NCBI GenBank assembly: GCA_049968315.1
Contig: JBMFRA010000006.1
Location: 647 to 64,646, forward strand
Direction of reading: 5' to 3'
Length of the DNA: 64,000 nt
Source: Acidobacteriota bacterium
GTDB taxonomy: Bacteria > Acidobacteriota > UBA4820 > DSQY01
In this document: one piece after another, positions 685 through 19,791 of the stretch
How the letters are laid out: the number at the start of each line of letters is the position of its first letter
Numbering within the stretch: position 1 is the stretch's first letter
Notes under the pieces: generated by a model
Told to the model about the DNA's origin: nothing
The model's input: only the letters and a program-made list of their open reading frames with translations
The model's database searches: none
Translations under genes and position numbers: made by a program

Positions 685-805
685 GCCTTCAGCGGGGTTG
701 TACCACAGGGTCCGGGGGAATGCAACGCGGCCCGCCCTACCGTCCCTCCTGGACCGGGTGGAGCCTTCCATCCCACCGCCTCTTCCTTCCCCCTGGCGGG
801 TCTCC

Positions 806-1870: not shown

Positions 1871-2727
1871 GGCCCCTCCTTCGTGTAGACGAGGTCGTGG
1901 GGCAGGTGGACGAGGCGGAAGCGGTCGGTGACGGAAATCAGGCTCTCCGAGTGGCCCAGCAGGAGAAAGCCGCCCGGCCGCAGCTTCTCGTGGAACTTCT
2001 CCATGACCCGCGCCTTGGCCTCCATGTCGAAATAGATAATGACGTTTCGGCAGAAAATCACGTCAAAGGGGGAGAAGAAGGCGTAGCGGTCCATGTCGAA
2101 GAGGTTGAAGCGGGAGAACTGGACCTTTTTCCGGATCTCCTCCTTCAGGCGGTACCGGTTGGGGCCCTCGGGATGGAACCACCGGGCCTTGAAGGGGGGG
2201 GGCACCCCCCGGAAGGAGCTCTCGGCGTAGATCCCCTCCCGGGCCCGGGCCAGCACGCGGGTGTTGATGTCGGTGCCGAGGATCTCGAAGGCCCCTTCGG
2301 TCCAGAGGCCCGCCTCCGTCAGGAGGATGGCCACCGAGTACGGCTCCTCCCCGCTGGAGCAGCCGGCGCTCCAGATGCGCAGGCGCTGGCTAGGCCGGGA
2401 GGCCCTCAGGGCGGGCACGATGTCCTTGAGGAAGCACTCGAGCTGGCGCTCCTCTCGCATGAAGTAGGTCTCGTTGGTGGTGATGAGGGCGATGAGGGCG
2501 TCCCACTCCTGGGCCCGGTCGGCGTCGTACTGGAGGAAGTGGTAGTAGTCGCGGGGGTGGAGCCCCCCCAGGGCCTCCAGGCGGTTCTGCAGGCGCTTCT
2601 CGAAGAAGAAGCGGCTGGAGGGGCCAAAGGAGAGCCCCGTCTGGTCGTGGACCAGCTTGCAGAAGAGCCGGAAGAGTTCGTCGTCGAGGAGGTTGCCCTC
2701 CGGCTCCATCCCGTCCCAGAGGCCCAT
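1867..2727 (-). CDS. cheR: Chemotaxis protein methyltransferase CheR
   Basis: The ETYFMREERQLECFLKDIV...RIWSAGCSSGEEPYSVAILL...VIFCRNVIIYFD block is a diagnostic CheR SAM-dependent methyltransferase signature. Confidence 0.9.
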   Translation of the reverse strand: MGLWDGMEPEGNLLDDELFRLFCKLVHDQTGLSFGPSSRFFFEKRLQNRLEALGGLHPRDYYHFLQYDADRAQEWDALIALITTNETYFMREERQLECFLKDIVPALRASRPSQRLRIWSAGCSSGEEPYSVAILLTEAGLWTEGAFEILGTDINTRVLARAREGIYAESSFRGVPPPFKARWFHPEGPNRYRLKEEIRKKVQFSRFNLFDMDRYAFFSPFDVIFCRNVIIYFDMEAKARVMEKFHEKLRPGGFLLLGHSESLISVTDRFRLVHLPHDLVYTKEGP

Positions 2728-2730
2728 GGT

Positions 2731-4941: not shown

Positions 4942-5720
4942 GGGGAACCTCCCCTCCGAGCCTGCCAGTCCAGGTACTGGGAGACGATGGCGTCCAGCAC
5001 CTTGGAAGCGCCCGGCCTCCGGGCCTCCAGGTACCGCTTGGCCTCCTGGGCCTCCTGGCGGAACTCCGCCAGGAACCCTTGGAGGTCCTTCACCTTCCGC
5101 ATTCTCCCGGGATGGTAGACGAGGAGGTCGGCGAAGACCGACCGGGCCAGGCGGTGGGACTCGGCGTCCAGACCCCGGCTCTCCGCCGCCCCCGCCTCCA
5201 GAGGCATGTGGAGGTGGTAGGAGATCTTTTTCAAAACCGCCTCGTCGCTGTAGCCCTCTTCGAGGTAGTCGTCGGCGCCGTAAAGGGACTCGGGCCTCCG
5301 GTGGTAACGGCGGGAGTTGTGGATGGCCCCCAGGAGAAGGATGGCCCGGGGAGCCGGGCCTTCGGCCCGGAGCCGGGCGATGAGTTCCACCCCCATGAGG
5401 CCGGGAAGGTAGGGGTTCACGAGGAGGAGGTCCGGGCGGCGCTGGCGGACCGCTTCGTAGGCCGCCTCTCCGTCTTCCGCCACCGTCAGGGCGAAGCCCT
5501 GCCGGTTGAGGAGGTCGATGAGGCCGTTCCGGAAGTCCCGCTGGATGTCGGCCACCACCGCGGTGGCGTGCCGCCCGTTGCCGGCCAGGTCGTGCAGGGC
5601 CTCGGGGCTCAGGTTCACCAGGAACTCCCGGGAACAGCCCCGGCAACGGACCCTCAGGAGGCGCGCCTGGCCTTCGGGAACCTTGTACCGCTTGAGGCAG
5701 TGGGGGCAGTAGACGTACAT
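4938..5720 (-). CDS. MJ0042-type zinc-ribbon protein fused to a receiver-like domain that appears to be a pseudo-receiver
   Basis: N-terminus MYVYCPHCLKRYKVPEGQARLLRVRCRGCSREFLV has CPHC...CRGC, a zinc ribbon. A REC-like fold follows (TAVVADIQRDF...RPDLLLVNPYLPGLMGVELI...ILLLGA), but the phospho-acceptor position reads N (LLLVNP) instead of D and the acidic pair is reduced to AD. This resembles non-phosphorylatable FrzS-type receivers. Confidence 0.7.
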   Translation of the reverse strand: MYVYCPHCLKRYKVPEGQARLLRVRCRGCSREFLVNLSPEALHDLAGNGRHATAVVADIQRDFRNGLIDLLNRQGFALTVAEDGEAAYEAVRQRRPDLLLVNPYLPGLMGVELIARLRAEGPAPRAILLLGAIHNSRRYHRRPESLYGADDYLEEGYSDEAVLKKISYHLHMPLEAGAAESRGLDAESHRLARSVFADLLVYHPGRMRKVKDLQGFLAEFRQEAQEAKRYLEARRPGASKVLDAIVSQYLDWQARRGGSP

Positions 5721-5733
5721 GGAGACTCCCGCG

Positions 5734-6411
5734 TCAGGGGGCGAAGGCCAGGAAGAGGGGCAGGTTCAGGAAGGCCACCGCCCGTCCGCCCCGGTAGAAG
5801 ACCCCCTCCACGAACTCCTGTCCCACGGGCCGGAAGCCTTCGGGGGGCGGTTCCAGGGTCTGGAGGTCCACCTCCGCCAGGGGTTCGATGCCGTCCACCA
5901 GGAGGCCGAAGTGGTCCGCCCCCATGTCCAGGATGACGATCTTTCGCCCTTCCTGGCGTGCGGCCCGCCGGATGCCCAGCCGCGCCGCCACGTCGATCAC
6001 GTTCACGATCTTCCCCCGGAGGGTGAGGATGCCCACGAAGAAGCCGGGGGCGTTGGGCACGGGGGTCAGGGGCCTCTCCTCGATGATGAGGGCGATGTCG
6101 TGGATGGGGATGGCGTACCGCTCCCGGGCCAGCAGGAAGACCAGGAGCTTCTCTCCGCGGCCCGAGGGGGCCTCCCCTTGGGGAGGGGAAGGTGCCGGGG
6201 CCCCTTCGCCTTCTGCGGCGGGCGGGGGGAGGGGCTTCTCCTCCGCCTCCCGCTCCGCCCCCTCCGCTTCCGGAGCGGGCGGGGGAAAGGGCGGCTCCGG
6301 TGGCGGGGGGGGCGCGGAAGGGGGCGGGGCTTCCCCGGCGGGAGGGTGCTTCTCCGGGGAAGGACGGCGGGCCTTCTTTCGGATCTTCGCCAGGTCCATG
6401 CGAGCCCCCAA
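5734..6411 (-). CDS. cheW: Chemotaxis coupling protein CheW with Pro-rich N-terminal extension
   Basis: CheW-like domain EKLLVFLLARERYAIPIHDIALIIEE...FFVGILTLRGKIVNVIDVAARLG...KIVILDMGADHFGLLVDGIE, preceded by ~85 aa rich in P, E and A. The start could alternatively be the 5th codon (MDLAK). Confidence 0.8.
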   Translation of the reverse strand: MGARMDLAKIRKKARRPSPEKHPPAGEAPPPSAPPPPPEPPFPPPAPEAEGAEREAEEKPLPPPAAEGEGAPAPSPPQGEAPSGRGEKLLVFLLARERYAIPIHDIALIIEERPLTPVPNAPGFFVGILTLRGKIVNVIDVAARLGIRRAARQEGRKIVILDMGADHFGLLVDGIEPLAEVDLQTLEPPPEGFRPVGQEFVEGVFYRGGRAVAFLNLPLFLAFAP

Positions 6412-6502
6412 AGGACGTTTCGATTATACGGAAGAGGGACGGGGGGTGCAATTCGGCGGGCCCTTTGGTTGTTCTTTCGCCTGAGCCAGAGAAAGGACGG
6501 AC

Positions 6503-7699
6503 ATGGCGCGGGCGGAAGAAGAGGAGAAGACCCCCGAAAGAAACGGCGCCCGGCCCTTTCCTTGGTTCGAGGTGCTGGGGGCCACCTCCCGCGTCCTGGC
6601 GGAGGACCTTCGGCTGGAGCGGACGGTTCAGTTCTGGCGTCTTGCCGTGCTCTCCCTTCTTCTCGCCGTACCCGCCGCGGCCATCGCGGTGGAGGGGTGG
6701 AGGCCCGAGCACCTCTGGGGGCTGGTGGTCATCCTGGCCAGCATCCTCCTCACCCTCCCCTCCCTCTGGAGCCTCAGGAGCCCCCGCCGCATCGCCCTGG
6801 TGCGCTTCGGCGCCACCTTCTTGGATGCCACGTGGGTGACGGCCCTCCTGGCGGTCTACCTCGCCCTGGGCAGGCCCATGATGGCCGTCAACAGCCAGGT
6901 GACCTTCCTCGCGTACTTCTTGGTCCTTGGCCTCATCGCCTGCCGCCACGACCTCTCCCTCGCCCTCTTCGGCGCCGCCCTGGTCCTCTGCGAATACCTG
7001 GCCCTGGTGGCGGCGGGGGCCTTCCTGTACAACCTCCCCTCCGCCCCCCCCGACCCCGCCTACGGCTCCTTCGGCTGGGCCAACCAGGTGGGACGCCTCA
7101 TCATCCTGCTCCTGGCGGCGGCCCTCACGGTCCTCGTGGTCCTCAACTCCCGGCGGGTGCGGGAGCACTCCCTGCGGGACGGCCTCACGGGCATCCACAA
7201 CCGCCGCTACTTCGAGGAGGCCCTGGAGCTGGAGTTCGTCCACAGCGAGGCCCGCGGGGAACCTCTGGTGCTGGTCCTCATGGACGTGGACCACTTCAAG
7301 GAGTACAACGACCGGCGCGGGCACCCCTTCGGAGACCGGGTGCTCCTCATGGCCGCCGACTACCTCCTCCGTCACCTGCGGCGAAGCGACGTTCTGGCCC
7401 GGTACGGTGGCGACGAGTTCGCTTTTCTCCTGCCCAACACCACCCCCCAAGAGGCCCTGGAGACCCTCTTCCGCCTCCAAGGGAATGCGGAGCGGTGGTT
7501 CCACGGGCTCACCACCCCCGGGGAGCCGCCCCTCTCCTTCTCCTTCGGCCTGGCCGAAAGGGGGCCGGGAGACGCGAGCGGCGCCGACCTCCTCGGCCGC
7601 GCCGACCGCCACCTCTACCGGAGTAAGGCCGCCGGCGGGGGGATGGTCTGCCTGGAGGGAGGCCGCCTGGTGAAGCGGCCGGCCGCCGCCCACCGCTGA
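6503..7699 (+). CDS. Membrane-bound diguanylate cyclase (multi-TM N-terminus + GGDEF domain)
   Basis: About six hydrophobic segments are followed by a GGDEF domain (DGLTGIHNRRYFEE...LVLMDVDHFKEYNDRRGHPFGDRVL...LRRSDVLARYGGDEFAFLLP). The active-site GGDEF and the RxxD I-site (RRSD) are both present. Confidence 0.85.
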   Translation: MARAEEEEKTPERNGARPFPWFEVLGATSRVLAEDLRLERTVQFWRLAVLSLLLAVPAAAIAVEGWRPEHLWGLVVILASILLTLPSLWSLRSPRRIALVRFGATFLDATWVTALLAVYLALGRPMMAVNSQVTFLAYFLVLGLIACRHDLSLALFGAALVLCEYLALVAAGAFLYNLPSAPPDPAYGSFGWANQVGRLIILLLAAALTVLVVLNSRRVREHSLRDGLTGIHNRRYFEEALELEFVHSEARGEPLVLVLMDVDHFKEYNDRRGHPFGDRVLLMAADYLLRHLRRSDVLARYGGDEFAFLLPNTTPQEALETLFRLQGNAERWFHGLTTPGEPPLSFSFGLAERGPGDASGADLLGRADRHLYRSKAAGGGMVCLEGGRLVKRPAAAHR

Positions 7700-7716
7700 A
7701 GCCTGGGCCCCTCCGG

Positions 7717-8256
7717 TCACCCGGTTAGGCGTCCCTCCGCCAGCGCCCGCTGGAAGGCCTGCCGGGCCAGGGATGCGTGGCGGCGGACGGTGACCTCCCC
7801 AATCCCCAGCAGGCGGGCCACCTCCCCGTCGGGAAGGCCCATCACCTCCCGGAGGAGAAAGACCAGCCTCCGGCGGGGGGCAAGCCCCCAGGCCCAGTGG
7901 TACAGGCGCCCGGGATCGAAGGGGCGCCCCTCCACCCGGAGTTCCCCCGCCCCTTGGGGCAGCGGCTCCATATCCGGGAGCTTCCGCCTCCGGCGGAGGA
8001 AGGTGTAGGCCCTGCGGACGGCGACGGCCTTGAGGAAGGGGTAGGGATCTTCCCCCCGGCGCAGGCGCCCCAGCGACCGGTAGAACCGGAAGAAGGCGTC
8101 TTGGAGGATCTCTTCGGTGTCCTCGGCGTTGGGGACCACCTGGAAGACCAGGCGGAAGAGGGGCCGGTAGTAGTGGCGGAGGAGCCGCTCGAAGGCCCCC
8201 TCGTCGCCCTCTTGGGCGGCACCGAGCCATTCCTGGGGGCCTTGGGACCCTTCCAC
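7717..8256 (-). CDS. ECF-family RNA polymerase sigma factor
   Basis: Sigma-70 region 2 (FERLLRHYYRPLFRLVFQVVPNAEDTEEILQDAFFRFYRSL) and region 4 (LVFLLREVMGLPDGEVARLLGIGEVTVRRH). Confidence 0.85.
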   Translation of the reverse strand: MEGSQGPQEWLGAAQEGDEGAFERLLRHYYRPLFRLVFQVVPNAEDTEEILQDAFFRFYRSLGRLRRGEDPYPFLKAVAVRRAYTFLRRRRKLPDMEPLPQGAGELRVEGRPFDPGRLYHWAWGLAPRRRLVFLLREVMGLPDGEVARLLGIGEVTVRRHASLARQAFQRALAEGRLTG

Positions 8257-8287: not shown

Positions 8288-11200
8288 CTACCGCGTGAAG
8301 ACCACCGTCGTCTCTCCCCCGTCGCCGTTGACGACCCTCAACGCCACCGGCACGCCGGCGGGGAGGGCGGCCTTGAGGGTGGCCCCTCCCTTGAGGACGA
8401 TCTTGGAGGCGCTCTTCACCGTGGTGTTGGACCAGAGGACCCCCCCCACGTAGACCTGGGCGTCGCTGTGGAAGTTGCCCCCCTGGAGGATGAGGCGGAA
8501 GGGCCCCGAGGCCGTCCGGACGGAGGTGACCTGGGGAGGCGCCACGACGGTGACGCTTCCGCTCTGCTGGCAGGAGGCGCCGTCCTTCTCCACCGTGAAG
8601 GACCAGGCGTAGGTCCCCGGCACCGCGTAGGTGTGGCGCGGGGACAGGTCAGTGGAGGTCCCGCCGTCGCCGAAGTCCCAGAGGAAGGAGGTGGTACCCC
8701 CGCAGTGGTCTTCGGTGTAGGAGGCGGAGAAGACCGCCTCCGAACCGGCGGAGGCCACGGGGGGGGCGGTGGCGGCGCAGCCCAGCGTGCAGGGGGTGGG
8801 CAGGGGAAGGGCGGAGGCCGGGTCCGCCGGGCGCCCTTCGAAACCCTCTCCGTCCACGGAAGTGACGGTGAAGAGGTACTCCCGGCCGTTTTCCAGCCCC
8901 CCCACCAGGGCGGTGGTCTGGGAGCCGCCGGCCTGGGTGGAGAAGGCCCAGGTGGCCCCGCCGTCCTCCGAGAGGTAGACCCGGAAGGCCGCAACCCCGA
9001 AGGCGGGGGGGGCCCAGGTCAGGCGGGCGGCGCCGTCCCGCCCCTCGGCCTGGAGCTGGGACGGGGGATCGGGGGCCGGCAGTCGAAGGCGCAGGGTGGG
9101 ATCGCCGAGAAGGACGTTGCCCAGGACCGCCCGGGCCAGCGTCGAGGGAAGGGCGAAGCGGCCGGCGTCCACGAGGTCGCCCAACTCCCGGACCTTGTCC
9201 CACCCGAAGGCCTCTTGGAGGAAGGCCCGGTTGAAGGTGTCCTCCTCGTCGGGGTAGGCGATGGTGGTGAAGCCCGAGGCCCCGATGGCGCCGCGGTCGG
9301 GACGGGCCACCAAGGCCTCCATGAGGGCCAGGGTGTTCACCTCGTCGAAGGCCGAGTTGTAGCAGGAACTGTTGAGGACGAAGGGAAGGGGGGCCTCCCC
9401 CGGCGTCATGGGGGGCAGGAGGTCCACGTCGGAATCGCTGCAGGTGCCCCCGCCGCAGTTCCGGGAGGGAAAGGCGGTGAAGACGGCGTAGTTCTTTCCC
9501 CAGAAGGCCACGCCGCTGTGGCCGGCGTAGTGGACCAGGGCCGACTGGGGCCAGGCGGAACGGAGGGCCGCGGCGAAAGCGTTGGCGTCGGTTCCGTTGT
9601 ACGGCGGGTCGTGGAAGTAGAGGTGGAGGTCTGACCAAGGCGGGGCAAAGTAGGCAGCCCGGTAGCCGTCGTTGATGGTCTCGAACTGCTGCTCCCAAGA
9701 AGAAGACCAGGTGTCGGCGACGAAGAGCCCCGTCCGGTACCAGCTCCCCCACCGGCCTTGGTCCTCGTAGGCGGCGATCTTGGCGAGGAGCCCTTCCAGC
9801 TCCCCGTAGGAGCGGACGGGGAGGCGCCCCGTGGCCATCTCCGGGAATCCGTCGCCGTCCACGTCGGCGAACCAGGCGTCGGAGGGGTACCTCCCCATGT
9901 AGGTGAAGTCGGTGAGGTCCTCGAACATCAGGGTGGGGACCCAGTTCTTCAGCGTGGGGTCACCCTTCACGTTCTTGTAGTCGTAAGTGGCGTCGCCCAC
10001 GAAGAGCACGTAGCGGGGCGCGGGGTTCCAGGAGGCGCGGGCGGCGGTGAGGAAGGACCGGATGGCCGTGGGGTCGAAGAGGCCGGAGGAGAACTGGTCG
10101 TAGACCTCCTGGATGTCCACCACCTCCACCGAGAAGCGGCTCCTCCTCCGCTGGAGGTACTCCCCCCAGGCCCCCGCCTCCCCGTTGGGGTGGAAATCGG
10201 GGTGGGTGAGGATGAGAAGGTCGGCCCCCAGGGAGGGGGAGGCCAGGTCCCGGGGGGCGGCCGCCTCCAGGGCCGCCGGGGCCTTCGGGGCGGCGGCGGC
10301 GTAGAGGCGCCGCTCGGTCCCCCCTTCCGCGGGCCGTTCGAAGGTGGCGGAATCCCCCGAAAAGAGGGCGTTCTCCAGGAGCCTGGGGAGGGCGAGGCCC
10401 GTTTCGGGGTCCGTCGCCGTGAGGTCCAGGAGGTAGGGGGCCGCGGGCAGGTTCGTCACGGCGTACCGAGCCTGGCGGTCGGGGACGGTGAAGTCCAGGA
10501 CCCCCTCGTGGGCCGCAAAGGTTCTCTCGTAGGAGACGTCGAAGAAGTCTGGGATCTGGTAGTCCCCGCTGCCGCTCACCGAGAGGACCAGGGGCACCTC
10601 GCCGGCGGGAACGCCGGGGCCAAAGGTCCAAGAGAAGGAGGCGAGGCCTAGGCCGCTATAGGCCGCGGGGTTGGGGCCCGAGGCCGGCGGCTGGCCCGCC
10701 AGCGTAGCCGAGAGGGTATGGGCCCCGGAGGAGAGGGCGGCCACCAGGGCCGTGACGGTCACCGGGGGGGCGGCGAGGCCGTAGAGGGGCAGGGTGTAGG
10801 TGCGGGGCTGGTTCTTGTAGACCGGCGACCCCATGTACCAGAGGTCCCCGTTGGGGCGGTAGTGGTAGATGTTGAAGAAGAAGTCGTTCCGCTCCACCCG
10901 AAGGTGTTCCGTGAAGGAGACTTCCAGGGGGTAGCCCGAGGCGGGGGCGGCGTTGGCCCGCTCCATGCGAAGCCCCGGGAACGACGGGTCCACCCTGAGC
11001 CAGTAGACATTCTCGTCGGTGAAATCCCCGCCGTTGAAGAGGGGCCTGGGCGGCAGGCGCAGCTTCTCGCCGAAGAAGAGGAGGGCGTGGGAGGGGCCGA
11101 AGGGAACGCCGGCGGGGCCTTCCACCAGGAGGGGGACCTCCTTCCCCCGGCAGAAGAGGTGGATGGCGTCGGGGGAGAGGCCCGTGAGGTCGAAACCGGC

Positions 11201-11806
11201 GGCGGCGAGGTCCGCGGCGGTGAGGCGGTAGAGGCCGTCCTCCCGGATGCGGATCCGCAGGCCCGGCGGCGGCGGAGCCGGAGCGGGCACCGCCGGGGCC
11301 CGGCGGGGAGGGGTGAAGGCGGGGAGCGGCGCCGGGACGGCGAAGAGGGAGGCCCCGGGAACGAAGGCGGGGGGGGCCACCGCCTTTTTTTCTTCCCCGT
11401 CCTCCTCCCAGCGGAGCAGAATGCGGGCCGAGGCGAGGAGGAGGAGTTGGCCCTCCCCCCCTCGCTGGAAGGGCCTCACCAGAATTTCCGCGTAGGGCCG
11501 CCCCCGAAAGGTCCCCCGGGCGCCCAGAGAGAGGGGCGGGCCGGAGGGAGGCTTGAGGGCCCCCGCCTCCACGGGGCTCCACGCCTCCTCCTCGAAGCAG
11601 GCCGAAAGGCCGCGGGCCTCCAAAGGAAGGGGGACCTTGAGGGAGACCACGGGGGCAGGCCGGGAGGGCCCGGGGGCGGTCCACACCGCCACCTCCGCCG
11701 GGGAGGGCCTCCAGGAGAGGCGCAGGCTACCCTCGGCGGCCCTCGGCGTGGCGGGGAAGGAAAGAAGGGCGGCGAGGCCCACCAGGGCCGCAACGGTTCT
11801 TTTCAT
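8288..11806 (-). CDS. Secreted multidomain peptidase, C25 (gingipain)-like catalytic domain + FN3 + PKD + C-terminal IPT/TIG-like domain
   Basis: Signal peptide MKRTVAALVGLAALLSFPATPRAAEG. A gingipain-like His/Cys region (VHYAGHSGVAFWG ... VLNSSCYNSAFD). An FN3-like segment (RLTWAPPAFGVAAFRVYLSEDGGATW...EYLFTVTSVD). A PKD domain (FLWDFGDGGTSTDLSPRHTYAVPGTYAWSFTV). A C-terminal ~75 aa TIG-like domain (PFRLILQGGNFHSDAQVYVGG...VLKGGATLKAALPAGVPVALRVVNGDGGE). Confidence 0.75.
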   Translation of the reverse strand: MKRTVAALVGLAALLSFPATPRAAEGSLRLSWRPSPAEVAVWTAPGPSRPAPVVSLKVPLPLEARGLSACFEEEAWSPVEAGALKPPSGPPLSLGARGTFRGRPYAEILVRPFQRGGEGQLLLLASARILLRWEEDGEEKKAVAPPAFVPGASLFAVPAPLPAFTPPRRAPAVPAPAPPPPGLRIRIREDGLYRLTAADLAAAGFDLTGLSPDAIHLFCRGKEVPLLVEGPAGVPFGPSHALLFFGEKLRLPPRPLFNGGDFTDENVYWLRVDPSFPGLRMERANAAPASGYPLEVSFTEHLRVERNDFFFNIYHYRPNGDLWYMGSPVYKNQPRTYTLPLYGLAAPPVTVTALVAALSSGAHTLSATLAGQPPASGPNPAAYSGLGLASFSWTFGPGVPAGEVPLVLSVSGSGDYQIPDFFDVSYERTFAAHEGVLDFTVPDRQARYAVTNLPAAPYLLDLTATDPETGLALPRLLENALFSGDSATFERPAEGGTERRLYAAAAPKAPAALEAAAPRDLASPSLGADLLILTHPDFHPNGEAGAWGEYLQRRRSRFSVEVVDIQEVYDQFSSGLFDPTAIRSFLTAARASWNPAPRYVLFVGDATYDYKNVKGDPTLKNWVPTLMFEDLTDFTYMGRYPSDAWFADVDGDGFPEMATGRLPVRSYGELEGLLAKIAAYEDQGRWGSWYRTGLFVADTWSSSWEQQFETINDGYRAAYFAPPWSDLHLYFHDPPYNGTDANAFAAALRSAWPQSALVHYAGHSGVAFWGKNYAVFTAFPSRNCGGGTCSDSDVDLLPPMTPGEAPLPFVLNSSCYNSAFDEVNTLALMEALVARPDRGAIGASGFTTIAYPDEEDTFNRAFLQEAFGWDKVRELGDLVDAGRFALPSTLARAVLGNVLLGDPTLRLRLPAPDPPSQLQAEGRDGAARLTWAPPAFGVAAFRVYLSEDGGATWAFSTQAGGSQTTALVGGLENGREYLFTVTSVDGEGFEGRPADPASALPLPTPCTLGCAATAPPVASAGSEAVFSASYTEDHCGGTTSFLWDFGDGGTSTDLSPRHTYAVPGTYAWSFTVEKDGASCQQSGSVTVVAPPQVTSVRTASGPFRLILQGGNFHSDAQVYVGGVLWSNTTVKSASKIVLKGGATLKAALPAGVPVALRVVNGDGGETTVVFTR

Positions 11807-11827
11807 GAAGGAAGTATAAAGAAGCGA

Positions 11828-11848
11828 GCCCCCGCTGGCAACGGGGGC
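11828..11848 (-). terminator. Candidate intrinsic terminator downstream of the small precursor ORF
   Basis: Inverted repeat GCCCCCG-CTGGCAA-CGGGGGC gives a 7-bp GC stem with a 7-nt loop. On the minus strand it is followed by a T-rich tract; the reverse complement of 11807-11823 is TCGCTTCTTTATACTTC. It sits ~25 nt after the peptide stop and immediately before the start of the C25 peptidase gene. Confidence 0.45.
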
Positions 11849-11872
11849 CCGCGGGTGGGGTCCTTCGGCGGG

Positions 11873-12022
11873 TCAGGAGTGGTACGGCCCAGCGCCGCAG
11901 GCGCCGGCACCCTTGCCGCAGGCACCGGCCTTGGCTTCCACCTTCTCCCGGTAGACCACCGCGGGCTTCTCGTAGGGCTTGCGCGTTTCCATCGTCACCG
12001 TCCCTTTCACGAGGGTGAACAT
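11873..12022 (-). CDS. Small ORF (49 aa) not in the supplied ORF track: candidate RiPP precursor peptide
   Basis: Manual reverse-strand translation gives MFTLVKGTVTMETRKPYEKPAVVYREKVEAKAGACGKGAGACGAGPYHS, with the stop at complement 11873-11875. AGGGGA lies 9 nt upstream of the ATG (SD-like). It starts 21 nt after the radical SAM/SPASM stop in the same frame. The C-terminal 18 residues are Gly/Ala/Cys-only repeats (GACGKGAGACGAG) ending in Ser. An alternative start is the internal METRK (ATG complement at 11990-11992). Confidence 0.5.
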   Translation of the reverse strand: MFTLVKGTVTMETRKPYEKPAVVYREKVEAKAGACGKGAGACGAGPYHS

Positions 12023-12043
12023 AGTGTGAAATCCCCTCGCCTG

Positions 12044-13171
12044 TCAAGGCCGTGTCACTGTCTCGTGCCGGATGAGAACCGGCTTCGCGGGCCCTCCCCG
12101 CCGCTCCTCCTCCGCCACCCGGCGCCGGATCCGCGCGATGCGGAGGTACTGGTCCTCCACCTGCAGGGGGTCCCCCGTGCGGAGCTGGGAGAGGCCGGGG
12201 CAGGAGAAGCAGAAGGCGTGGTCCTCGGTGCTCCGCCGGATCGCCCCGGGAACGGCGCGGTTGGCCTCCCGAACCTTCTTGAGGAGGGGGGAGGTCTCCC
12301 AGATCTCCTTCAGCCGTGCCTTCCGGACGTTGCCCACCGCCTGCTTCCACTGGGTGCACGGCTGGACGTCCCCGTAGGGGGTCACGTGGAACATCCCCGT
12401 CCCCACGGTGCAGTTGTACTCCCCGCCCTCCCGCTCGAAGGGGGAGTTGCCGATGTTGAGCCCCTCCCTGCGGTAGAGGGAGGCGATGGCCTCGTCGGAG
12501 GCCATGAGCTCCAGGGGGAAGGGGTCGCCGTCGTCGGAGGCGGTGAGGACCGGGTCGAAGTAGACGGGGTAGCCGAAGCGCTGGCCCAGTTCCCGGATCT
12601 CCTGGAGCTGGTGCTCCACCAGCCGGGTCACCACCACCTTCAGGTAAACCCGGAGCCCCTGGGCCCGGAGGTACCCCAGGGCCTTCACCTGGCGGTCGAA
12701 GGACCCGGCCACCTGGGTGAGGGCCTCGGCCGTTTCGGCGTCGGCGCCGTGGAGGGACATCTCGATGCAGAAGGGGGCCAGTTCCCTGAGCCTCCGCGCC
12801 GTCTCCTCGGTGATGGCGACGCCGTTGGTGAAGATCCGCAGGGCGAAGGCGCGCTTCCTCGCCTCCCGGGCCAGGTCCCAAAAGCGCGGGTGGAGGAGAG
12901 CCTCCCCCCCCGTGAAGGTCAGGAAGAGGATCCCCATCTCCCGCATCTGGTCCAGAAGGTCTAGGTACTCCTCGAAGGAGAGGGGAGGTCCCGGCGGCGG
13001 AGGCGGCGGAGTGCGCCGGGGCTGGTTCTTCCGGGCCACGGGGTTGTAACAGTACCGGCAGGCCAGGTTGCAGGTGTAGGTCAGCTCCAGGGAGGCGCTG
13101 TAGGGGTGGGCGGACTCGATGGCCCGGTTGAGGAGGTCCTGGTACGGGGTGAGGGGGGGGCGCCGGGCCAA
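12044..13171 (-). CDS. Radical SAM / SPASM-domain peptide-modifying enzyme
   Basis: CxxxCxxC cluster in LTYTCNLACRYCYNP. A TIM-barrel region follows (ILFLTFTGGEALL...IFTNG...IEMSLHG). The C-terminal SPASM-type cysteines are CTVGTGMFHVTPYGDVQPCTQ...HAFCFSCPG. Confidence 0.9.
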   Translation of the reverse strand: MARRPPLTPYQDLLNRAIESAHPYSASLELTYTCNLACRYCYNPVARKNQPRRTPPPPPPGPPLSFEEYLDLLDQMREMGILFLTFTGGEALLHPRFWDLAREARKRAFALRIFTNGVAITEETARRLRELAPFCIEMSLHGADAETAEALTQVAGSFDRQVKALGYLRAQGLRVYLKVVVTRLVEHQLQEIRELGQRFGYPVYFDPVLTASDDGDPFPLELMASDEAIASLYRREGLNIGNSPFEREGGEYNCTVGTGMFHVTPYGDVQPCTQWKQAVGNVRKARLKEIWETSPLLKKVREANRAVPGAIRRSTEDHAFCFSCPGLSQLRTGDPLQVEDQYLRIARIRRRVAEEERRGGPAKPVLIRHETVTRP

Positions 13172-13181
13172 GAATACCTTC

Positions 13182-13445
13182 CTACAGCAGGGCGCCGCTC
13201 TTCCGGAGATCCTCTAGGAAAACCAGAAGATCCCGGCGGGCTTCCTCCTCGGAAACGGCGAAGGTCCGGGCGATATTTCGCGCCAGCGTCTCCACGTCCT
13301 CCTCCTCCAGGTGCTCCCAAATGTACGTCCCCACCTCGTTGAGGACCTGCACCTCCCCCTCGATGTTGAAGACCAGAACCGCCTGGCCCTCGATGACCCG
13401 CCAGGAGACCTCGGGGTTACGCCGGTGGACCGTCTGTTCGACCAT
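13182..13445 (-). CDS. PqqD-family protein (RiPP recognition element-like peptide chaperone)
   Basis: 87 aa: MVEQTVHRRNPEVSWRVIEGQAVLVFNIEGEVQVLNEVGTYIWEHLEEEDVETLARNIARTFAVSEEEARRDLLVFLEDLRKSGALL. Length and pattern match the PqqD/RRE family (hydrophobic beta strands, then LNxxGxxIWxxL and a 3-helix bundle). Confidence 0.8.
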   Translation of the reverse strand: MVEQTVHRRNPEVSWRVIEGQAVLVFNIEGEVQVLNEVGTYIWEHLEEEDVETLARNIARTFAVSEEEARRDLLVFLEDLRKSGALL

Positions 13446-14316
13446 GAAGGACCTCGCTCTCCAAAAGCGGCCAGAAGCTCGCGCTCTTCGTAAAGTGTAA
13501 GTCGAAGACCGGCGTCTGGCCAGTGAGGTCCTCGAGGAGTGGGAGGAGCCGACCCTTCCGGTCCGCCGGGGCGGTGACGAAGGGGCAGGCCGCCGCCAGG
13601 CTGGCCACCGCCACCGGCCTCGGAAGGGCCTCCAGCCTGTCCTCGGGAGCCTTCCGCAGGCGGAACAGGCCGGCCACGGGAAAAATTCCGGGGTGCTTCC
13701 CTCCCTGGGGAAGGGTTCCGGCGAAGGGGGTGGCGGCGGCGAAAAAGCGGCCCTGCCGTTTCAGGAGGAGCACCAGATCGTCGGAGAGGAGGGGGAGGCC
13801 GGGGCTCAACGAGGCCACGGTGGACTTGCCGGCGCCGGAGGGGCCGAAGAAGAGGCAGGCCCGGCCCTCCCGCACCAGGCCGGCGCTGTGGAGGACGAAG
13901 CCGCGGTGCTCCAGCGCCAGGTCCGCCACGGTCCAGCGGAGGACGTTCTCCACCGCCTGCAGGAAGGAAGGGGAACCGGGGGGGGCCGAGACCCGCACCA
14001 CCCCCCTCCGCCCGGCCCGGAAGGCGGCGAAGCCGTGGGAAAGGAGGAGCCGTCCCTCCCCCAGCGGCCGCTCCTCCAGCCGCAGGAAGCGGTCCGGGGC
14101 CATCGAAAGGTAGGCCTCCCAGCCGGGGACCACCCGGAAGACCAACGCGGGCTCCTCTTCGGCGAGGAAGGGACGGTACCGCTCCCTCAGCGCCTCCAGG
14201 GGTGCCTCCCCCGGAAAGAGAAAGCCTACGGTGAGCCCCGCCACCGAGACCCCCAAGGGATGGGTACAGGCGGGGAGGCCCTCCTCGAAGTGCCGAAGAT
14301 CCGGAAAACGATCCAT
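13417..14316 (-). CDS. HPr kinase-related (HprK-like) P-loop kinase
   Basis: Walker A motif CLFFGPSGAGKSTVA in the second half of a ~300 aa protein, typical of the HPr kinase C-terminal fold. The start is trimmed to MDRFPDLRHFEEG (ATG complement at 14314-14316). The upstream 25 codons of the listed ORF are Arg/Gly-rich and overlap nothing conserved. The gene overlaps the PqqD gene start by 29 bp. Confidence 0.65.
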   Translation of the reverse strand: MDRFPDLRHFEEGLPACTHPLGVSVAGLTVGFLFPGEAPLEALRERYRPFLAEEEPALVFRVVPGWEAYLSMAPDRFLRLEERPLGEGRLLLSHGFAAFRAGRRGVVRVSAPPGSPSFLQAVENVLRWTVADLALEHRGFVLHSAGLVREGRACLFFGPSGAGKSTVASLSPGLPLLSDDLVLLLKRQGRFFAAATPFAGTLPQGGKHPGIFPVAGLFRLRKAPEDRLEALPRPVAVASLAAACPFVTAPADRKGRLLPLLEDLTGQTPVFDLHFTKSASFWPLLESEVLHGRTDGPPA

Positions 14317-14387
14317 GGATGAAACGCGGGGGACGCCGCCGGCGTCCCCCCTTCCCCTTGGCGGTTCCCCAAAACCTCTTCTTCGCC

Positions 14388-14804
14388 TCAACGGGGCTCC
14401 AGTTCTGGGAAGAAGAAGGCCACCTCCCTCCGGGCGTTCTCCTCCGAGTCCGACCCGTGGACGGCGTTGCGCTGGATGTCGGTTCCGAATCGCCCCCGGA
14501 GGGTCTCCGGGGGGGCCTTCCCGGAATCGGTGGGCCCCATGACCGCACGGAGCCGCGCCACGGCATCTTCCCCTTGGAGGCAGGCGGCGACGACGGGGCC
14601 GGAGGTCATGAAGTCCACCAGCTCCTGGAAGAAGGGCCGCTCGCGGTGGACGGCGTAGAAGGCCTCCGCCTCGCTCCGGGAGAGGCGGTGGAGCCTCAGG
14701 GCCACCAGGTCGAAGCCCTCGTCCAGCAGGCGCTGGAGGATGGCCCCCGCCACCCGCTTGGCCATGGCGTCGGGCTTGATCATCACCAGGGTGCGCTGGA
14801 CCAT
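14388..14804 (-). CDS. ndk: Nucleoside diphosphate kinase
   Basis: MVQRTLVMIKPDAMAKRVAGAILQRLLDEGFDLVALRL...NAVHGSDS is a textbook NDK sequence with the active-site His. Confidence 0.95.
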   Translation of the reverse strand: MVQRTLVMIKPDAMAKRVAGAILQRLLDEGFDLVALRLHRLSRSEAEAFYAVHRERPFFQELVDFMTSGPVVAACLQGEDAVARLRAVMGPTDSGKAPPETLRGRFGTDIQRNAVHGSDSEENARREVAFFFPELEPR

Positions 14805-16195: not shown

Positions 16196-17326
16196 TCAGC
16201 CTCCCACGATGGCCGACAGGATGCTCGCCGGCGTGATGGGTTCGCCGTTCACGAGGTTGACGCGGGCGATGGGGACGCCCTTGCCCAGGATGCGCTCCAC
16301 CTCGAGGACGTACTGCCCCAGGTTCATCTCCGGCACCACCACCTTCCGGGCGCTCCGGGCGGCGGCGGCCAGCTCCTCCTCCGGGACGGGGTAGAGGGTC
16401 ACGGGCCGGAAGAGGCCGGCCTTCACCCCCTTCTCCCGCGCCTCGTTCACCGCACGCTTGGCCGACCGGGCGGTGGAACCGTAGGCCACCACCAGGACCT
16501 CCGCGTCCTCGGTGCGGAAGTTCTCGTAGAGGAGGATCTCCTTCTTGTTTCGCTCCACCTTGTCCAGGAGGCGCCGGTGGAGGGACTCCATGTTGGCGGC
16601 GGTGAGGGAGGGAAAGCCCGTCTCGTCGTGGTCCAGCCCGGTGACGTGGTACCGGGCCCCTTCGCCGTAATTCATCCACGGGGGAACCAGGTCCTCCCCA
16701 GCGGCGTAGGGCTTGAAGGAGACCTGCTCCTGAGGCGACGGCCCCCGGGCCCAGACCTGCTCCACCGACTCGGGGACGGCGAGCTTCTCCCGCATGTGGG
16801 CCACGATCTCGTCCATGGCGAGGACCGTTGGGGTCCGCAGGCGCTCGGCGAAGTTGAAGCAGTGGACGGTGCACGCAAAGGCCTCGGGGACCGTGGAGGG
16901 GGAGAGGACCACCGCGGGGTGGTCGCCGTGGGTACCCCAGCGGCACTGCTGGACGTCGGACTGGGAAGGCCCCGTGGGGTTTCCGGTGGAGGGCCCGCCC
17001 CGCATCACGTTCACGAGGACGATGGGAACCTCCGCCATGGCGGCGTAGCCGAGGTTCTCCTGCATGAGGGAGAAGCCCGGCCCCGAGGTGGCGGTCATGG
17101 CCTTGAGCCCCGCCAGGCGCGCCCCGATGATGGCCCCGATGGAGGCGATCTCGTCCTCCATCTGGATGAACTTCCCCCCGATCTTGGGAAGGCGCCCCGA
17201 CATCTTCTCGGCGATCTCCGAGGAGGGGGAGATGGGGTACCCGGCGAAGAACCGGCACCCGGCGGCCACGGCGCCTTCGGCGCAGGCCTCGTTGCCGGAG
17301 AGGAATCTGACGTTCTCCGAAGCCAT
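16196..17326 (-). CDS. korA: 2-oxoglutarate:ferredoxin oxidoreductase alpha subunit
   Basis: LSGNEACAEGAVAAGCRFFAGYPISPSSEIAE...ASIGAIIGARLAGLKAMTATSGPGFSLMQENLGYAAMAEVPIVLVNVMRGGPSTG is an alpha-subunit signature. Confidence 0.9.
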   Translation of the reverse strand: MASENVRFLSGNEACAEGAVAAGCRFFAGYPISPSSEIAEKMSGRLPKIGGKFIQMEDEIASIGAIIGARLAGLKAMTATSGPGFSLMQENLGYAAMAEVPIVLVNVMRGGPSTGNPTGPSQSDVQQCRWGTHGDHPAVVLSPSTVPEAFACTVHCFNFAERLRTPTVLAMDEIVAHMREKLAVPESVEQVWARGPSPQEQVSFKPYAAGEDLVPPWMNYGEGARYHVTGLDHDETGFPSLTAANMESLHRRLLDKVERNKKEILLYENFRTEDAEVLVVAYGSTARSAKRAVNEAREKGVKAGLFRPVTLYPVPEEELAAAARSARKVVVPEMNLGQYVLEVERILGKGVPIARVNLVNGEPITPASILSAIVGG

Positions 17327-17336
17327 GGCTGTCCCC

Positions 17337-17648
17337 CTAGTCCACGAAAATGGCGAAGTCCGGGCAGCGGATCTCGCAGAGCATGCACTTGGTGCAGGCG
17401 TCGGCGTCCACCACCTCCACGTGGCGGAAGCCCATGGCCAGGACCTTCTCCGGGCAGTAGTTCACGCAGATGTTGCAGAGGTTCCCCTTGCAGTGGGAGG
17501 GAATCACGGTGATGGTGAGGTCCTTCTTCACCTTCCGGCCGTGGCCCGAGACGGCGAACTTGTCCTTCTGGACCTCCTTGAGCCGCGGCGAGCCCACGTC
17601 GCGGCCTTCCTGGAGTTCGCCGCTGGTCCGCTGAAGCGTCATCGGCAT
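17337..17648 (-). CDS. korD: 4Fe-4S ferredoxin-type delta subunit of the 2-oxoacid:ferredoxin oxidoreductase
   Basis: Two Cys clusters (CKGNLCNICVNYCP and CTKCMLCEIRCP) in a 103-aa protein directly upstream of korA. Confidence 0.8.
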   Translation of the reverse strand: MPMTLQRTSGELQEGRDVGSPRLKEVQKDKFAVSGHGRKVKKDLTITVIPSHCKGNLCNICVNYCPEKVLAMGFRHVEVVDADACTKCMLCEIRCPDFAIFVD

Positions 17649-17720
17649 CTTGTTCTCCCCGGCGGAGCCTTCGTTGCCCCGCCCAAAGCCGTGCGGGGGG
17701 CGACGCCCCCCGCCTTTTCG

Positions 17721-18602
17721 CTACCGTTTGCCCGATAGGGCGCGCACCATGGCCTCGCCGATTTCGGTGGGGCTCTTGACCACCACGGCCCCCGCCTCGG
17801 TGAGGGCCTTCATCTTCTCCGCCGCCGTGCCCTTGCCGCCGGCGATGATGGCCCCGGCGTGGCCCATGCGGCGGCCGGGGGGGGCCGTCTGGCCGGCGAT
17901 GAAGGCCACCACCGGCTTCTTCATGTGGGCCTTGATGTACGCCGCGGCCTCTTCCTCCGAGGTACCGCCGATCTCTCCGATGAGGACGACGCCCTCGGTG
18001 GCCGGGTCTTCGTTGAAGAGCTGGAGGGCCTCCACGTGGGAGGTCCCGGGGACGGGGTCCCCCCCGATGCCCACGCAGGTGCTCTCGCCCAGTCCCGTCT
18101 CCGTGAGCTGCCACACCGCCTCGTAGGTGAGGGTGCCCGAGCGGGAGATGACCCCCACGCGGCCGGGCTTGTGGATGTACCCGGGCATGATGCCCATCTT
18201 GCACTCGCCGGGGGTGATGACGCCGGGGCAGTTGGGGCCGATGAGGCGGGCCCCGGAGTTCCGGATGGCGGCCTTCATGCGGGCCTCGTCCCTGGCGGGG
18301 ATGCCCTCGGTGATGCAGACGATGACCTTCACGCCGGCGTCGGCGGCCTCCAGGACGGCGTCGGCGGCGAAGGCGGGCGGGACGAAGATGAGGGAGGCAT
18401 CGGCGCCGGTCTCCTTCACGGCGCCGGATACGGTGTCGAAGATGGGGACCTTCTCCTCCCAGCGGGTGCCGCCCTTGCCCGGCGTGACCCCGGCCACGAC
18501 CTTCGTTCCATACTCCAGGCACTGGCGGGCGTGGAAGGAGCCTTCCTTGCCGGTGATGCCCTGGACCACGACGCGGGTCTCCTTGTTGACCAGAATGCTC
18601 AT
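17721..18602 (-). CDS. sucD: Succinyl-CoA synthetase alpha subunit
   Basis: [45 protein letters not shown]...SRSGTLTYE...GIGGDP with the phospho-His loop MGHAGAII. Confidence 0.95.
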
Positions 18603-18612
18603 GGGGCCCCCC

Positions 18613-19791
18613 TCACTTCACCGAGGCGACGGCCATCTGGGCCGCCTGCTTGAGGTTGTCGGCCACGGCGAACTTGAGGCCGGAGGCCGCCAGCATCGCC
18701 TTGCCCTTGTCCACGTTGGTCCCCTGGAGCCGCACCACCACCGGGAGGGAGACGCCGATCTCCTTGGCGGCGGCGATGACACCCTCGGCGATGACGTCGC
18801 AACGGACGATCCCGCCGAAGATGTTGATGAGGACCGCCTTCACGTTTTTGTCGCTCAGGAGGATCTTGAAGGCGTTCTTCACCCGCTCGGTGGTGGCCCC
18901 GCCGCCCACGTCCAGGAAGTTGGCCGGTTCCCCGCCCTCCAGCTTGATGACGTCCATGGTGGCCATGGCCAGACCGGCGCCGTTCACCATGCAGCCGATG
19001 TTCCCATCGAGCCGGATGTAGTTGAGGTCGTACTTGCTCGCCTCGATCTCCAGCGGCTCCTCTTCCGAGAGGTCCCGCATCTCCACGATGTCGGGGTGGC
19101 GGAAGAGGGCGTTGTCGTCGAAGTTCATCTTGGCGTCGAGGGCGAGGACGTGGCCGTCCTTGGTGAGGATGAGGGGGTTGATCTCCGTCAGGGTGGCGTC
19201 GGTCTCCTCGTGGGCCCTGTAGAGGGCCGTGACGAGCCTGACGCACTCCTTGAAGGCCTCCCCCTTGAAGCCCAGGCCGAAGGCGATCTGGCGGGCGTGG
19301 AAGGGCTGGATGCCCACCAGGGGGTCGATCCACGTCTTGAGGATCTTCTCCGGCGTCTCGGCGGCCACCTTCTCGATCTCCACCCCGCCCTCGGTGGAGG
19401 ACATGACGACGTTCATCTGGCGGGCCCGGTCCAGAACGATGCCCAGGTAGTACTCCTTGGCGATGTCGCTGGCCTCGGTGACGTAGACCTTCTGGACCTC
19501 CTTGCCCGCCGGCCCCGTCTGGTGCGTCACCAGGACGTTGCCGAGCATCTTCTTGGCGAACTCCGCGGCCTCGTCGGCGGTCTGGGCCAGCTTGACGCCG
19601 CCCTTGAAACCGTCGGTGAAGGTCCCTTTGCCCCGTCCGCCGGCGTGGATCTGGGCCTTGACCACGACGGTTCCGCCAATCTCCTTCGCCGCGGCGTAGG
19701 CCTGTTCGGCGGAAAGGGCCACCTTGCCGCGGGGCACGGCCACGCCGTACCGCCCCAGGATCTCCTTGGCTTGATACTCGTGAACTTTCAC
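18613..19791 (-). CDS. sucC: Succinyl-CoA synthetase beta subunit
   Basis: [22 protein letters not shown]...[16 protein letters not shown]...[22 protein letters not shown]...[11 protein letters not shown] is a canonical SucC. Confidence 0.95.

Follow-up and report, generated by a model that had tools for sequence, protein, structure and literature searches.

A conserved 39-codon gene beside a radical SAM enzyme in an Acidobacteriota contig is a probable RiPP precursor gene

The small ORF and its gene model

The window analysed here is a stretch of 64,000 nucleotides (70% GC) from a contig of an Acidobacteriota bacterium (JBMFRA010000006.1), and the feature under study is a small open reading frame (ORF) on its minus strand, directly behind a gene for a radical S-adenosylmethionine (rSAM) enzyme. 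Judged by its conservation in related DNA, the small ORF is a real, conserved gene of 39 codons. It is genetically linked to the rSAM gene and to genes for a discrete PqqD-family protein and a kinase-like protein of the ScmC family. With a probability that we put at roughly 85%, it encodes the precursor of a peptide that is made on ribosomes and modified after translation (a RiPP), on which this enzyme set acts, guided by a RiPP recognition element (RRE).

The first-pass annotation had described the ORF as 49 codons (11873-12022, minus strand), in the frame of the rSAM gene and 21 nt past its stop. All of this is borne out by the sequence, in which the ORF runs from ATG to TGA, the rSAM stop codon is at 12046-12044 and the translation reads MFTLVKGTVTMETRKPYEKPAVVYREKVEAKAGACGKGAGACGAGPYHS. 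The composition had been described less accurately: two cysteines are present (residues 35 and 42 of the 49-aa ORF) rather than three, and the last 18 residues, said to consist of Gly, Ala and Cys only, also include Lys, Pro, Tyr, His and Ser.

The true start is most likely the second ATG (11992-11990, Met11 of the 49-aa ORF), which gives a gene at 11873-11992 (minus strand, 77 homologues) with a product of 39 amino acids, METRKPYEKPAVVYREKVEAKAGACGKGAGACGAGPYHS, followed by the stop codon. This start is preferred because the start codons of the relatives align with Met11 and because the first ATG (12022-12020) lies in the -10 hexamer (TATGTT, 12018-12023) of a promoter whose -35 hexamer (TTGACA, 12042-12047) overlaps the rSAM stop codon TGA. 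Choosing the longest ORF would thus give the wrong start, since the upstream ATG belongs to the promoter, and the locus illustrates how annotation can miss a real gene. A Shine-Dalgarno-like sequence, GAAAGGGA (12001-12008), can be read 8 nt 5' of the ATG at 11992, and a purine-rich GGAG/GGGA block lies 6-9 nt before the aligned start codon in nine relatives. The ribosome-binding site originally proposed, GAGGGGA 9 nt 5' of the first ATG, is present in the sequence, but it falls within the promoter spacer and its role in translation initiation was probably misassigned, as the ATG that it would serve is part of the -10 element.

A promoter scan called TTGACA-18-TATGTT (12047-12018), which agrees with the consensus at 10 of 12 positions; the number of such sites expected by chance, from shuffled sequences, is 0.0. 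An alignment of the intergenic region from nine loci displayed conservation of TTGACA, a spacer of 17-18 nt and TAnnnT. The element is kept in the homologous loci L082, L083/L001, L085, L092, L116, L118, L120 and L154, where the aligned -10 reads TATATT, TATTTT, TATAGT, TACACT or TACATT and where the promoters of L082 and L092 reach 11 matches out of 12 each. A separate promoter, (G/A)TGACA-17-TATACT, is conserved in the second clade of rSAM-linked peptides, which is more distant. On the other side of the gene, 21 nt past its stop codon, an intrinsic-terminator-like hairpin of 13 pairs (10 of them G-C) is followed by TTCTTTAT (11824-11852, minus strand; folding energy -32.5 kcal/mol, z = -3.4), and a similar hairpin is found 3' of the precursor gene in L082. 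For RiPP precursors this is the classical layout: a tiny gene that closes an enzyme operon and has a strong promoter and a terminator to itself. A search against Rfam gave no credible RNA element at the precursor site. A second promoter-like site, TTGCCA-17-TATACT (10 of 12 positions; 11813-11841, minus strand), overlaps the descending arm of the terminator hairpin and ends 6 nt before the ATG (11806) of the next gene, which encodes a C25 peptidase. Because this site is so near the ATG, the peptidase mRNA could be leaderless, or the gene could need read-through.

The codon-position check that had been suggested for the ORF gave GC contents of 0.60, 0.54 and 0.86 at the three positions. The ORF thus follows the coding pattern of the window, and its third-position value (GC3) stands at the low end for the clear genes (0.83-0.96). 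ORF length and GC3 alone prove nothing, since such ORFs are common by chance (107 ORFs of at least 30 aa were counted in 15 kb) and since the same GC3 periodicity is seen in an antisense shadow ORF (10718-12964, plus strand). The significance of the ORF therefore rests on its conservation. The shadow ORF (748 aa) and a second one at 13214-14566 on the minus strand (450 aa) are Arg/Pro/Gly-rich, lie antisense or out of frame over real genes and are not genes themselves.

A peptide family and its link to one enzyme set across three gene orders

A protein search with the 49-aa ORF returned a single match, a 40-aa relative (MERRKPYEKPAVVYREKIEAKAGACSKTGAGLCGAGPYVS), on whose contig the peptide follows an rSAM fragment 74% identical to the window enzyme. 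Two genome loci with rSAMs 57-59% identical to it carry the same kind of peptide directly downstream. A scan of genome contigs with an rSAM alignment yielded only three close loci, generic rSAM patterns dominating the output. Scanning metagenomes with an alignment of the four peptides yielded 114 relatives confirmed by tblastn, of which 80 loci were kept; together with the three earlier loci and the window, these gave 77 distinct peptides. The resulting profile hidden Markov model (HMM) has one match in the window, at 3.4e-17.

The peptides share a leader, (M)KKPYEKPA[IV][IV][HYF]xEK[IV]EARA, followed by a core that is variable in sequence and length and consists of two residues, a Cys, 6-16 residues, a second Cys and a further 5-9 residues. 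Exactly two cysteines are present in 74 of the 77 peptides, most commonly with six residues between them, and the C-terminal residue is Ser in 66 (86%). In the window, the leader would comprise residues 1-22 (METRKPYEKPAVVYREKVEAKA, 11927-11992), with the invariant stretch Y7-E-K-P10-A-V and a putative boundary to the core at residues 23-39 (GACGKGAGACGAGPYHS, 11876-11926), which holds Cys25, Cys32 and the C-terminal Ser39. The leader-plus-core architecture envisaged for the 49-aa product is thus reflected in the conserved leader and variable core of the homologues, although at a preferred length of 39 aa. The GACG...GACG tandem element and the Gly/Ala richness, which had been taken as features of the peptide, are not kept in relatives and are peculiar to the lineage of the window. 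Going by the aligned peptides, the family signature is YEKPA...C-x6-16-C...Ser-COOH rather than Gly/Ala richness.

Selection was assessed over a block of 21 codons, the 19 of the leader and the first two of the core. The ratio of nonsynonymous to synonymous differences per site (pN/pS) between the window and most relatives was 0.13-0.41 (pS 0.32-0.88 and pN 0.07-0.30 for selected relatives), and the mean over 2850 pairs was 0.31, with synonymous sites near saturation. On the strength of these ratios, the precursor gene is under purifying selection.

Exact look-up in public collections found relatives that are labelled 'hypothetical protein' only and whose clusters count 29, 156 and 8 members, while the window's own peptide was absent in both its 39-aa and its 49-aa form. 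The notion that the family is never called by gene finders was accordingly dropped; only the window peptide is missing. No Pfam or NCBIfam model matched any family member (NCBIfam up to E = 1), and no description of the peptide or the cluster was found in the literature searched, an incomplete library. Several loci carry two to four divergent copies in tandem (L155 at 4972-7952, L116, L117, L119, L147 and L152). The cores in L155 end in ...VPAFD and not in Ser. A Vicinamibacteria-type precursor gene in L163 (9473-9741) is split by a frameshift in a long-read contig, which may be an assembly indel rather than a sign of a pseudogene.

Three gene orders connect these peptides to the enzymes. In the first, rSAM-peptide-C25-ECF (the last being a sigma factor of the extracytoplasmic function type), the peptide gene lies directly downstream of rSAM homologues that are 50-88% identical, as counted in L082 and in 17 other loci, from metagenomes or genomes, whose upstream DNA measured 600 nt or more. 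The complete set kinase-PqqD-rSAM-peptide-C25-ECF is also syntenic in the second clade, in which the rSAMs are only 31-37% identical. A C25 gene lies downstream in 12 of the 12 rSAM-adjacent loci with at least 1.5 kb of downstream DNA, and the ECF sigma factor gene is syntenic in 12 loci and in L168. In the second gene order, that of Vicinamibacteria-type contigs, PqqD-rSAM-ScmC has the gene of a 61-aa member (...RLPYEKPAVSWEQPLEAQPSLMSGCQKQPGGAPDCTAVGPIRS) immediately upstream. The third is seen in L168, on a contig of 643 kb, where the peptide gene is found about 15 kb downstream in a ScmC-PqqD-rSAM-C25-ECF cluster that runs ScmC, PqqD, rSAM, a sulfatase-family protein, C25, ECF, TSP3, FG-GAP, proteins of 166, 240 and 500 aa without Pfam matches, and the peptide. 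The discrete PqqD gene is present in all resolved arrangements. Since the same enzyme set is linked to the peptide in three gene orders, a functional link between them is indicated. This strongly supports the proposal that the small ORF encodes the precursor for the adjacent rSAM maturase. Conservation in orthologous neighbourhoods, set beforehand as the test of that proposal, was thus found, and the tightly packed cluster leaves no room for an ORF that would make a better precursor.

In 26 soil loci, the peptide gene lies about 25 nt past the stop codon of a gene for a secreted protein of about 500 aa, with a strong Shine-Dalgarno sequence, no promoter of its own and no rSAM gene within 6 kb. 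That such soil peptides ('group B') are orphans was considered and rejected, as an upstream walk past the ECF gene on the 643-kb contig reached ScmC-PqqD-rSAM about 15 kb away. The secreted protein is Cys-rich and ends in ...KERFGPASF (L096, L105, L106, L112, L115, L128 and L164-L168; in L168 at 17179-18818). A paralogue is often encoded just downstream as well, and for both proteins Pfam and NCBIfam are without a match. Genes coupled so tightly suggest that the peptide and these secreted proteins are functionally related. In L168 (1-5527), ScmC-PqqD-rSAM stands between two genes of the alkaline phosphatase superfamily, one for a Phosphodiest protein upstream and one for a Sulfatase/Phosphodiest/TPR protein overlapping the rSAM stop, which could reflect phosphate chemistry on the peptide or a function like that of anaerobic sulfatase-maturating enzymes (anSMEs). 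The family HMM found no member beside the more distant rSAMs of loci L003 and L005-L081. In L003, from a Thermoanaerobaculum aquaticum metagenome-assembled genome (MAG), the rSAM is 38% identical to that of the window and no family peptide is detectable within 6 kb on either side; it may be distant, as in L168, or absent.

Around the precursor gene in the window, all members of the cluster lie on the minus strand. It begins beside ndk (14388-14804), the first gene in this order and 5' of the kinase-like gene, and the neighbourhood is one of housekeeping genes (ndk, sucCD and 2-oxoacid:ferredoxin oxidoreductase). The kinase-like gene (13417-14313, probably starting at the Met at 14313 of an ORF open to 14391) overlaps at its end the start of the PqqD gene (13182-13445), and the rSAM gene (12044-13171) follows. 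Beyond the precursor come the gene for a secreted PorU-like C25 cysteine peptidase (8288-11806) and that for the ECF-type sigma factor (7717-8256), the last syntenic gene of the cluster. Past it lie a convergent gene for a GGDEF diguanylate cyclase and a chemotaxis-like set consisting of CheB, CheR, a 971-aa HEAT-repeat protein, a response regulator and CheW (800-7700).

The partner enzymes and a model of maturation

The neighbouring gene was correctly recognized as one for a radical SAM/SPASM protein (PF04055, 1.2e-24; PF13186, 1.8e-9). The enzyme has 375 aa, shares 100% identity with an enzyme of an Acidobacteriota MAG and has numerous homologues in Acidobacteriota. Throughout its family C34, C38 and C41 (CxxxCxxC) are invariant; the invariant cysteines of the C-terminal domain are limited to C254-x17-C272 and C321-x2-C324. 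By this count of cysteines, the auxiliary domain is of a Twitch-like four-Cys pattern and not a seven-Cys SPASM domain. Among solved structures, the family profile is closest to SkfB (6efn, 5.6e-20), with an alignment that runs through the C-x17-C Twitch motif; PqqE comes next, and BtrN matches over the Twitch region. The alignment with SkfB begins after SkfB's own N-terminal domain, and the window enzyme has no fused, N-terminal RRE. Its AlphaFold model (pLDDT, the predicted local distance difference test score, of 88) has a fold like SuiB, SkfB, PqqE and anSME, with the highest TM-scores from anSME (0.62-0.65). A Pro-rich, family-specific insertion, YNPVARKNQPRRTPPPPPPGPPLSF, follows directly upon CxxxCxxC (window 12990-13050, residues ~42-62), with N43, P44, R47 and Q50 invariant and a lower confidence in the model. 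Such an insertion at this place is unusual for rSAM cores.

The discrete PqqD-family protein (87 aa; PF05402, 2.7e-15) gave weak matches to the lasso, GeoRSP and ScmD PqqD models, all under the cut-offs. Discrete RREs, such as those of lasso peptide systems, bind the leader motif [Y/W]xxPx[L/V/I/F/A] (PMC13381572), and the invariant Y-E-K-P-A-[V/I] of the family fits this pattern, which suggests that the leader motif is bound by the PqqD/RRE protein.

The kinase-like protein matched TIGR04352 at 4.7e-8 (32.5 bits, cut-off 200 bits), and its homologues carry the Pfam domain ScmC (PF27840). In 39 homologous sequences a His, the P-loop GxSGxGK(S/T)T and an Asp-Asp pair are invariant (His142, Lys163, Asp178 and Asp179, numbered from the Met at 14313), and the protein matches phosphoenolpyruvate carboxykinase (PEPCK) around the P-loop. 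A structure model built from database homologues (pLDDT 94) has a PEPCK-like fold, with PEPCK as the nearest structure in the PDB. The lasso peptide kinases PadeK and ThcoK have a His-Lys-Asp-Asp signature and phosphorylate the linear precursor at a strongly conserved Ser, its C-terminal residue (PMC9266682), and HprK-like kinases together with a discrete RRE act on linear peptides with YxxPxVL leaders (PMC13381572).

The C25 protein (signal peptide, C25, FN3 and PKD domains; PF01364, 2e-59) has PorU (6za2) as its best PDB match. The catalytic residues, His in YAGHSG and Cys in NSSCYN, line up with the motifs of PorU, and 15 syntenic homologues keep both (His763 and Cys815) without exception. 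In the peptides, [R/K]-Ala is usually kept three to four residues before Cys25.

These elements can be combined into a model of maturation. The sigma-70-type promoter overlapping the end of the rSAM gene would drive transcription of the precursor, and the hairpin would largely stop it, leaving the precursor in excess over the enzymes. The first ~22 residues would serve as leader, in which YEKPA[V/I] would be bound by the separate PqqD/RRE protein, and this in turn would present the 17-residue core to an rSAM enzyme that has no RRE of its own. The rSAM enzyme would most likely work on or through Cys25 and Cys32. Our preferred chemistry, held tentatively and at somewhat less than even odds, is the formation of sactionine-type thioether cross-links at C-alpha positions. 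These are favoured because the cysteines are the only invariant residues of the core, because the identity of the acceptor is free and because the nearest structural relative is a sactisynthase. The core in the window offers only Gly, Ala, Lys, Pro, Tyr, His and Ser as acceptors, and acceptor identity is not conserved. The ScmC-family kinase may phosphorylate a Ser of the precursor, with Ser39 as best candidate, a possibility that we entertain by analogy with the HprK-like kinases of lasso and linear polyphosphorylated peptide (LPP) systems and that likewise falls short of an even chance. The secreted C25 peptidase might take off the leader near the conserved [R/K]-Ala, which we consider doubtful, and the ECF sigma factor would regulate the module. 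Gingipain-like, [R/K]-specific cleavage of the leader was kept only as a weak idea, as about 10 of the 77 peptides have no basic residue there.

A number of observations weigh against this model or parts of it. None of the enzymes is encoded in the available flanking DNA of 22 loci, and in L168 the gene next after the rSAM is that of the sulfatase-family protein instead of the peptide. The compact cluster holds neither a transporter nor an immunity gene. The rSAM enzyme scored below every NCBIfam equivalog cut-off, with AhbD (117 bits) and MftC (107.5 bits) at the top rather than sactisynthases, and the number of C-terminal cysteines varies within its family, the distant member in L168 having one Cys where the window enzyme has CxxC. 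As to the kinase, some peptides in loci that contain it end in Ala or Gln (L135, and second copies in L117 and L119). As to the peptidase, the peptides without a basic residue before the core include that of L142, a locus with a C25 gene, and the peptide has neither a signal sequence nor an exporter, which leaves its contact with a secreted enzyme unexplained.

The alternative closest in weight concerns the chemistry. There is a real, though less than even, chance that the two cysteines form only a disulfide, or a metal site after a conversion of the heterocycle or thioamide type, and that the rSAM reaction is an epimerisation, a C-C cross-link or an MftC-like modification of the C-terminus. 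The lack of any conserved acceptor residue is in line with this, as is the auxiliary-cluster Cys pattern, which is reduced and variable. Moreover, no sactisynthase cut-off was reached, the AhbD, MftC, NirJ and PqqE models scoring at least as high as AlbA and SkfB, and the conserved C-terminal residue recalls MftA-type chemistry. For thioethers at C-alpha, however, variable acceptors are normal, and the two cysteines are the sole invariant core residues in a family whose profile has the sactisynthase SkfB, through its Twitch motif, as closest solved homologue. A different product altogether, the precursor of a protein-bound or cofactor-like small subunit that is cross-linked by the rSAM enzyme and works with the neighbouring secreted proteins (C25, FG-GAP/TSP3 and the ~500-aa paralogues), appears improbable. 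The models for it would be the gamma subunit of quinohemoprotein amine dehydrogenase, mycofactocin and pyrroloquinoline quinone (PQQ). The promoterless peptide genes some 25 nt behind the ~500-aa genes in the 26 soil loci suggest coupled expression, large secreted repeat proteins or C25 flank the peptide in all arrangements, the housekeeping neighbourhood makes the cluster look vertically inherited, and the best full-length NCBIfam alignment of the rSAM enzyme in a single stretch is to the mycofactocin maturase (7.6e-31). Yet the core is highly variable apart from its two cysteines and occurs in two to four divergent copies in L116, L117, L147 and L155, and variable multi-copy cores are typical of secondary-metabolite or signalling RiPPs and not of cofactors. 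The score also stays below the MftC cut-off (107.5 against 265 bits), and the peptide lacks a C-terminal Gly-Val-Tyr as well as a signal peptide.

Two further explanations detach the ORF from the rSAM enzyme or deny that it is a gene. If the enzyme matured a neighbouring protein in the manner of an anSME, the small ORF would encode an unrelated conserved protein, for example a regulator linked to the ECF factor. This idea draws on the overlap of the rSAM gene with the start of the sulfatase/phosphodiesterase-family gene in L168, where the peptide is 15 kb away, on the anSME structures that head the TM-scores and on the ECF gene that is always nearby. It is nevertheless very improbable: the rSAM enzyme is always accompanied by a discrete PqqD/RRE protein, which anSMEs do not use, and the peptide has an RRE-type YxxP leader motif and stands beside the rSAM gene in two independent gene orders, while the cluster in the window contains no sulfatase gene and the full seven-Cys SPASM motif of anSMEs is absent. 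The reading of the ORF as an unexpressed frame, open by chance in GC-rich DNA between genes, has a practically negligible probability. Random ORFs of this size are abundant at 70% GC, the exact window peptide is missing from public protein collections and the GC3 periodicity is common to the antisense shadow ORF, but the idea is effectively refuted by 77 homologues with conserved start, stop, Shine-Dalgarno sequence and motif, by purifying selection, by the dedicated promoter and terminator and by the single HMM match in the window.

Comparison with known RiPP systems

The system has what RRE-dependent rSAM RiPP systems have in general, namely a precursor with a conserved leader of 20 residues, a PqqD-like RRE and an rSAM enzyme with an auxiliary domain. 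At the same time, it misses the thresholds of all named families tested (AlbA, SkfB, StsB, MftC, ACGX, ScmC/D/E/F, GeoRSP and HprK_rel_A), and membership in the mycofactocin, SCIFF-like and Scm groups was rejected on score thresholds. The ACGX-repeat system was likewise rejected (TIGR04340, 68.3 of 400 bits; no NCBIfam match to the peptide). ACGK and ACGA occur in the window peptide only, with ACSK, LCGA, SCTK, TCGP and others at these places in relatives.

With the sactipeptide systems (SkfA/SkfB, subtilosin AlbA), the cluster shares a short precursor with a leader, a Cys-containing core and an rSAM enzyme with an auxiliary-cluster domain. The scores of the window enzyme, however, are far under the cut-offs (AlbA 51.5/850, SkfB 51.6/300 and StsB 89.5/625 bits), its RRE is a separate PqqD protein instead of an N-terminal domain, and the core has only two cysteines and no conserved acceptor. 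The system is also Acidobacterial, has kinase, C25 and ECF partners, and its chemistry is predicted. The trio of small peptide, PqqD-like chaperone and rSAM/SPASM enzyme is also that of mycofactocin biosynthesis (MftA/MftB/MftC), and some homologues of the window enzyme are auto-annotated as MftC. Apart from the low MftC score, the differences lie in the absence of MftD, MftE and MftF genes, in a variable and sometimes multi-copy core, and in a peptide that ends in ...PYHS or ...GPITS and not in GVY.

The combination of a ScmC-like protein, a PqqD and a PqqE-like rSAM enzyme is also that of the SynChlorMet (Scm) and GeoRSP cassettes of NCBIfam/TIGRFAMs, to whose ScmC/D/E/F and GeoRSP models weak matches were obtained. 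The scores remain below the equivalog cut-offs (ScmC 19.1/125, ScmD 25.6/100, ScmE 65.1/400 and ScmF 84.3/400 bits), and the Scm cassettes have two rSAM/SPASM proteins, compared to a single rSAM enzyme and a clear precursor family here. To our knowledge, the description of the Scm cassette names no precursor.

From the RiPPs with HprK-like kinases (the phosphorylated lasso peptides paeninodin and pseudomycoidin, and LPP), the system has the discrete RRE, the YxxP-type leader and a P-loop kinase with His-Lys-Asp-Asp. Precursors of the paeninodin type have a highly conserved C-terminal Ser as acceptor; in the present family a Ser that may be a candidate acceptor ends 66 of the 77 peptides, with exceptions in loci with a kinase (L135). 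What is missing relative to the lasso and LPP clusters is the lasso cyclase, the B2 peptidase, the SpI-like peptidase, the NTP transferase and the exporter; an rSAM enzyme is present instead, and the kinase is of the ScmC family (PF27840), with the TIGR04352 score below threshold (32.5/200 bits). Lasso and LPP clusters pair their HprK-like kinases with counterparts of the nucleotidyltransferase NTP_transf_5. Among the loci of the present family, an NTP_transf_5 (PF14907) gene was seen directly upstream of a member in L130 only (4881-6111).

A bolder reading, which we consider unlikely, is that the system is a new RiPP class rather than a sactipeptide variant. In it, a lasso/LPP-type YxxP leader and a discrete RRE would bring a two-Cys core both to a Twitch-type rSAM enzyme and to a ScmC-family kinase of PEPCK/HPrK fold, and the product would belong to a conserved cell-envelope module made up of the PorU-like C25 peptidase, the ECF sigma factor and the large secreted FG-GAP/TSP3 proteins. 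Instead of a free antibiotic, the product might then be a signal, or serve the secreted proteins as partner or substrate. If this were true, ScmC-type cassettes would gain their first substrate family.

Acidobacteria abound in soil, but their chemistry is almost unexplored. The analysis defines an unnamed and widespread family of probable precursors (114 or more metagenomic loci, and as many as 156 members in one public cluster) and ties it to a specific enzyme set. It thereby supplies a concrete candidate substrate both for an rSAM clade that is uncharacterised and for the kinase-like proteins of the ScmC family, with a chemistry that is directly testable by co-expression and mass spectrometry. 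The joining of a lasso/LPP-style leader and kinase with an rSAM enzyme and a PorU-like peptidase had no description that we could find in the searchable literature. Set against the known systems, the peptide is an object of an ordinary type, a probable RiPP precursor, but its family is undescribed and its set of partners unusual.

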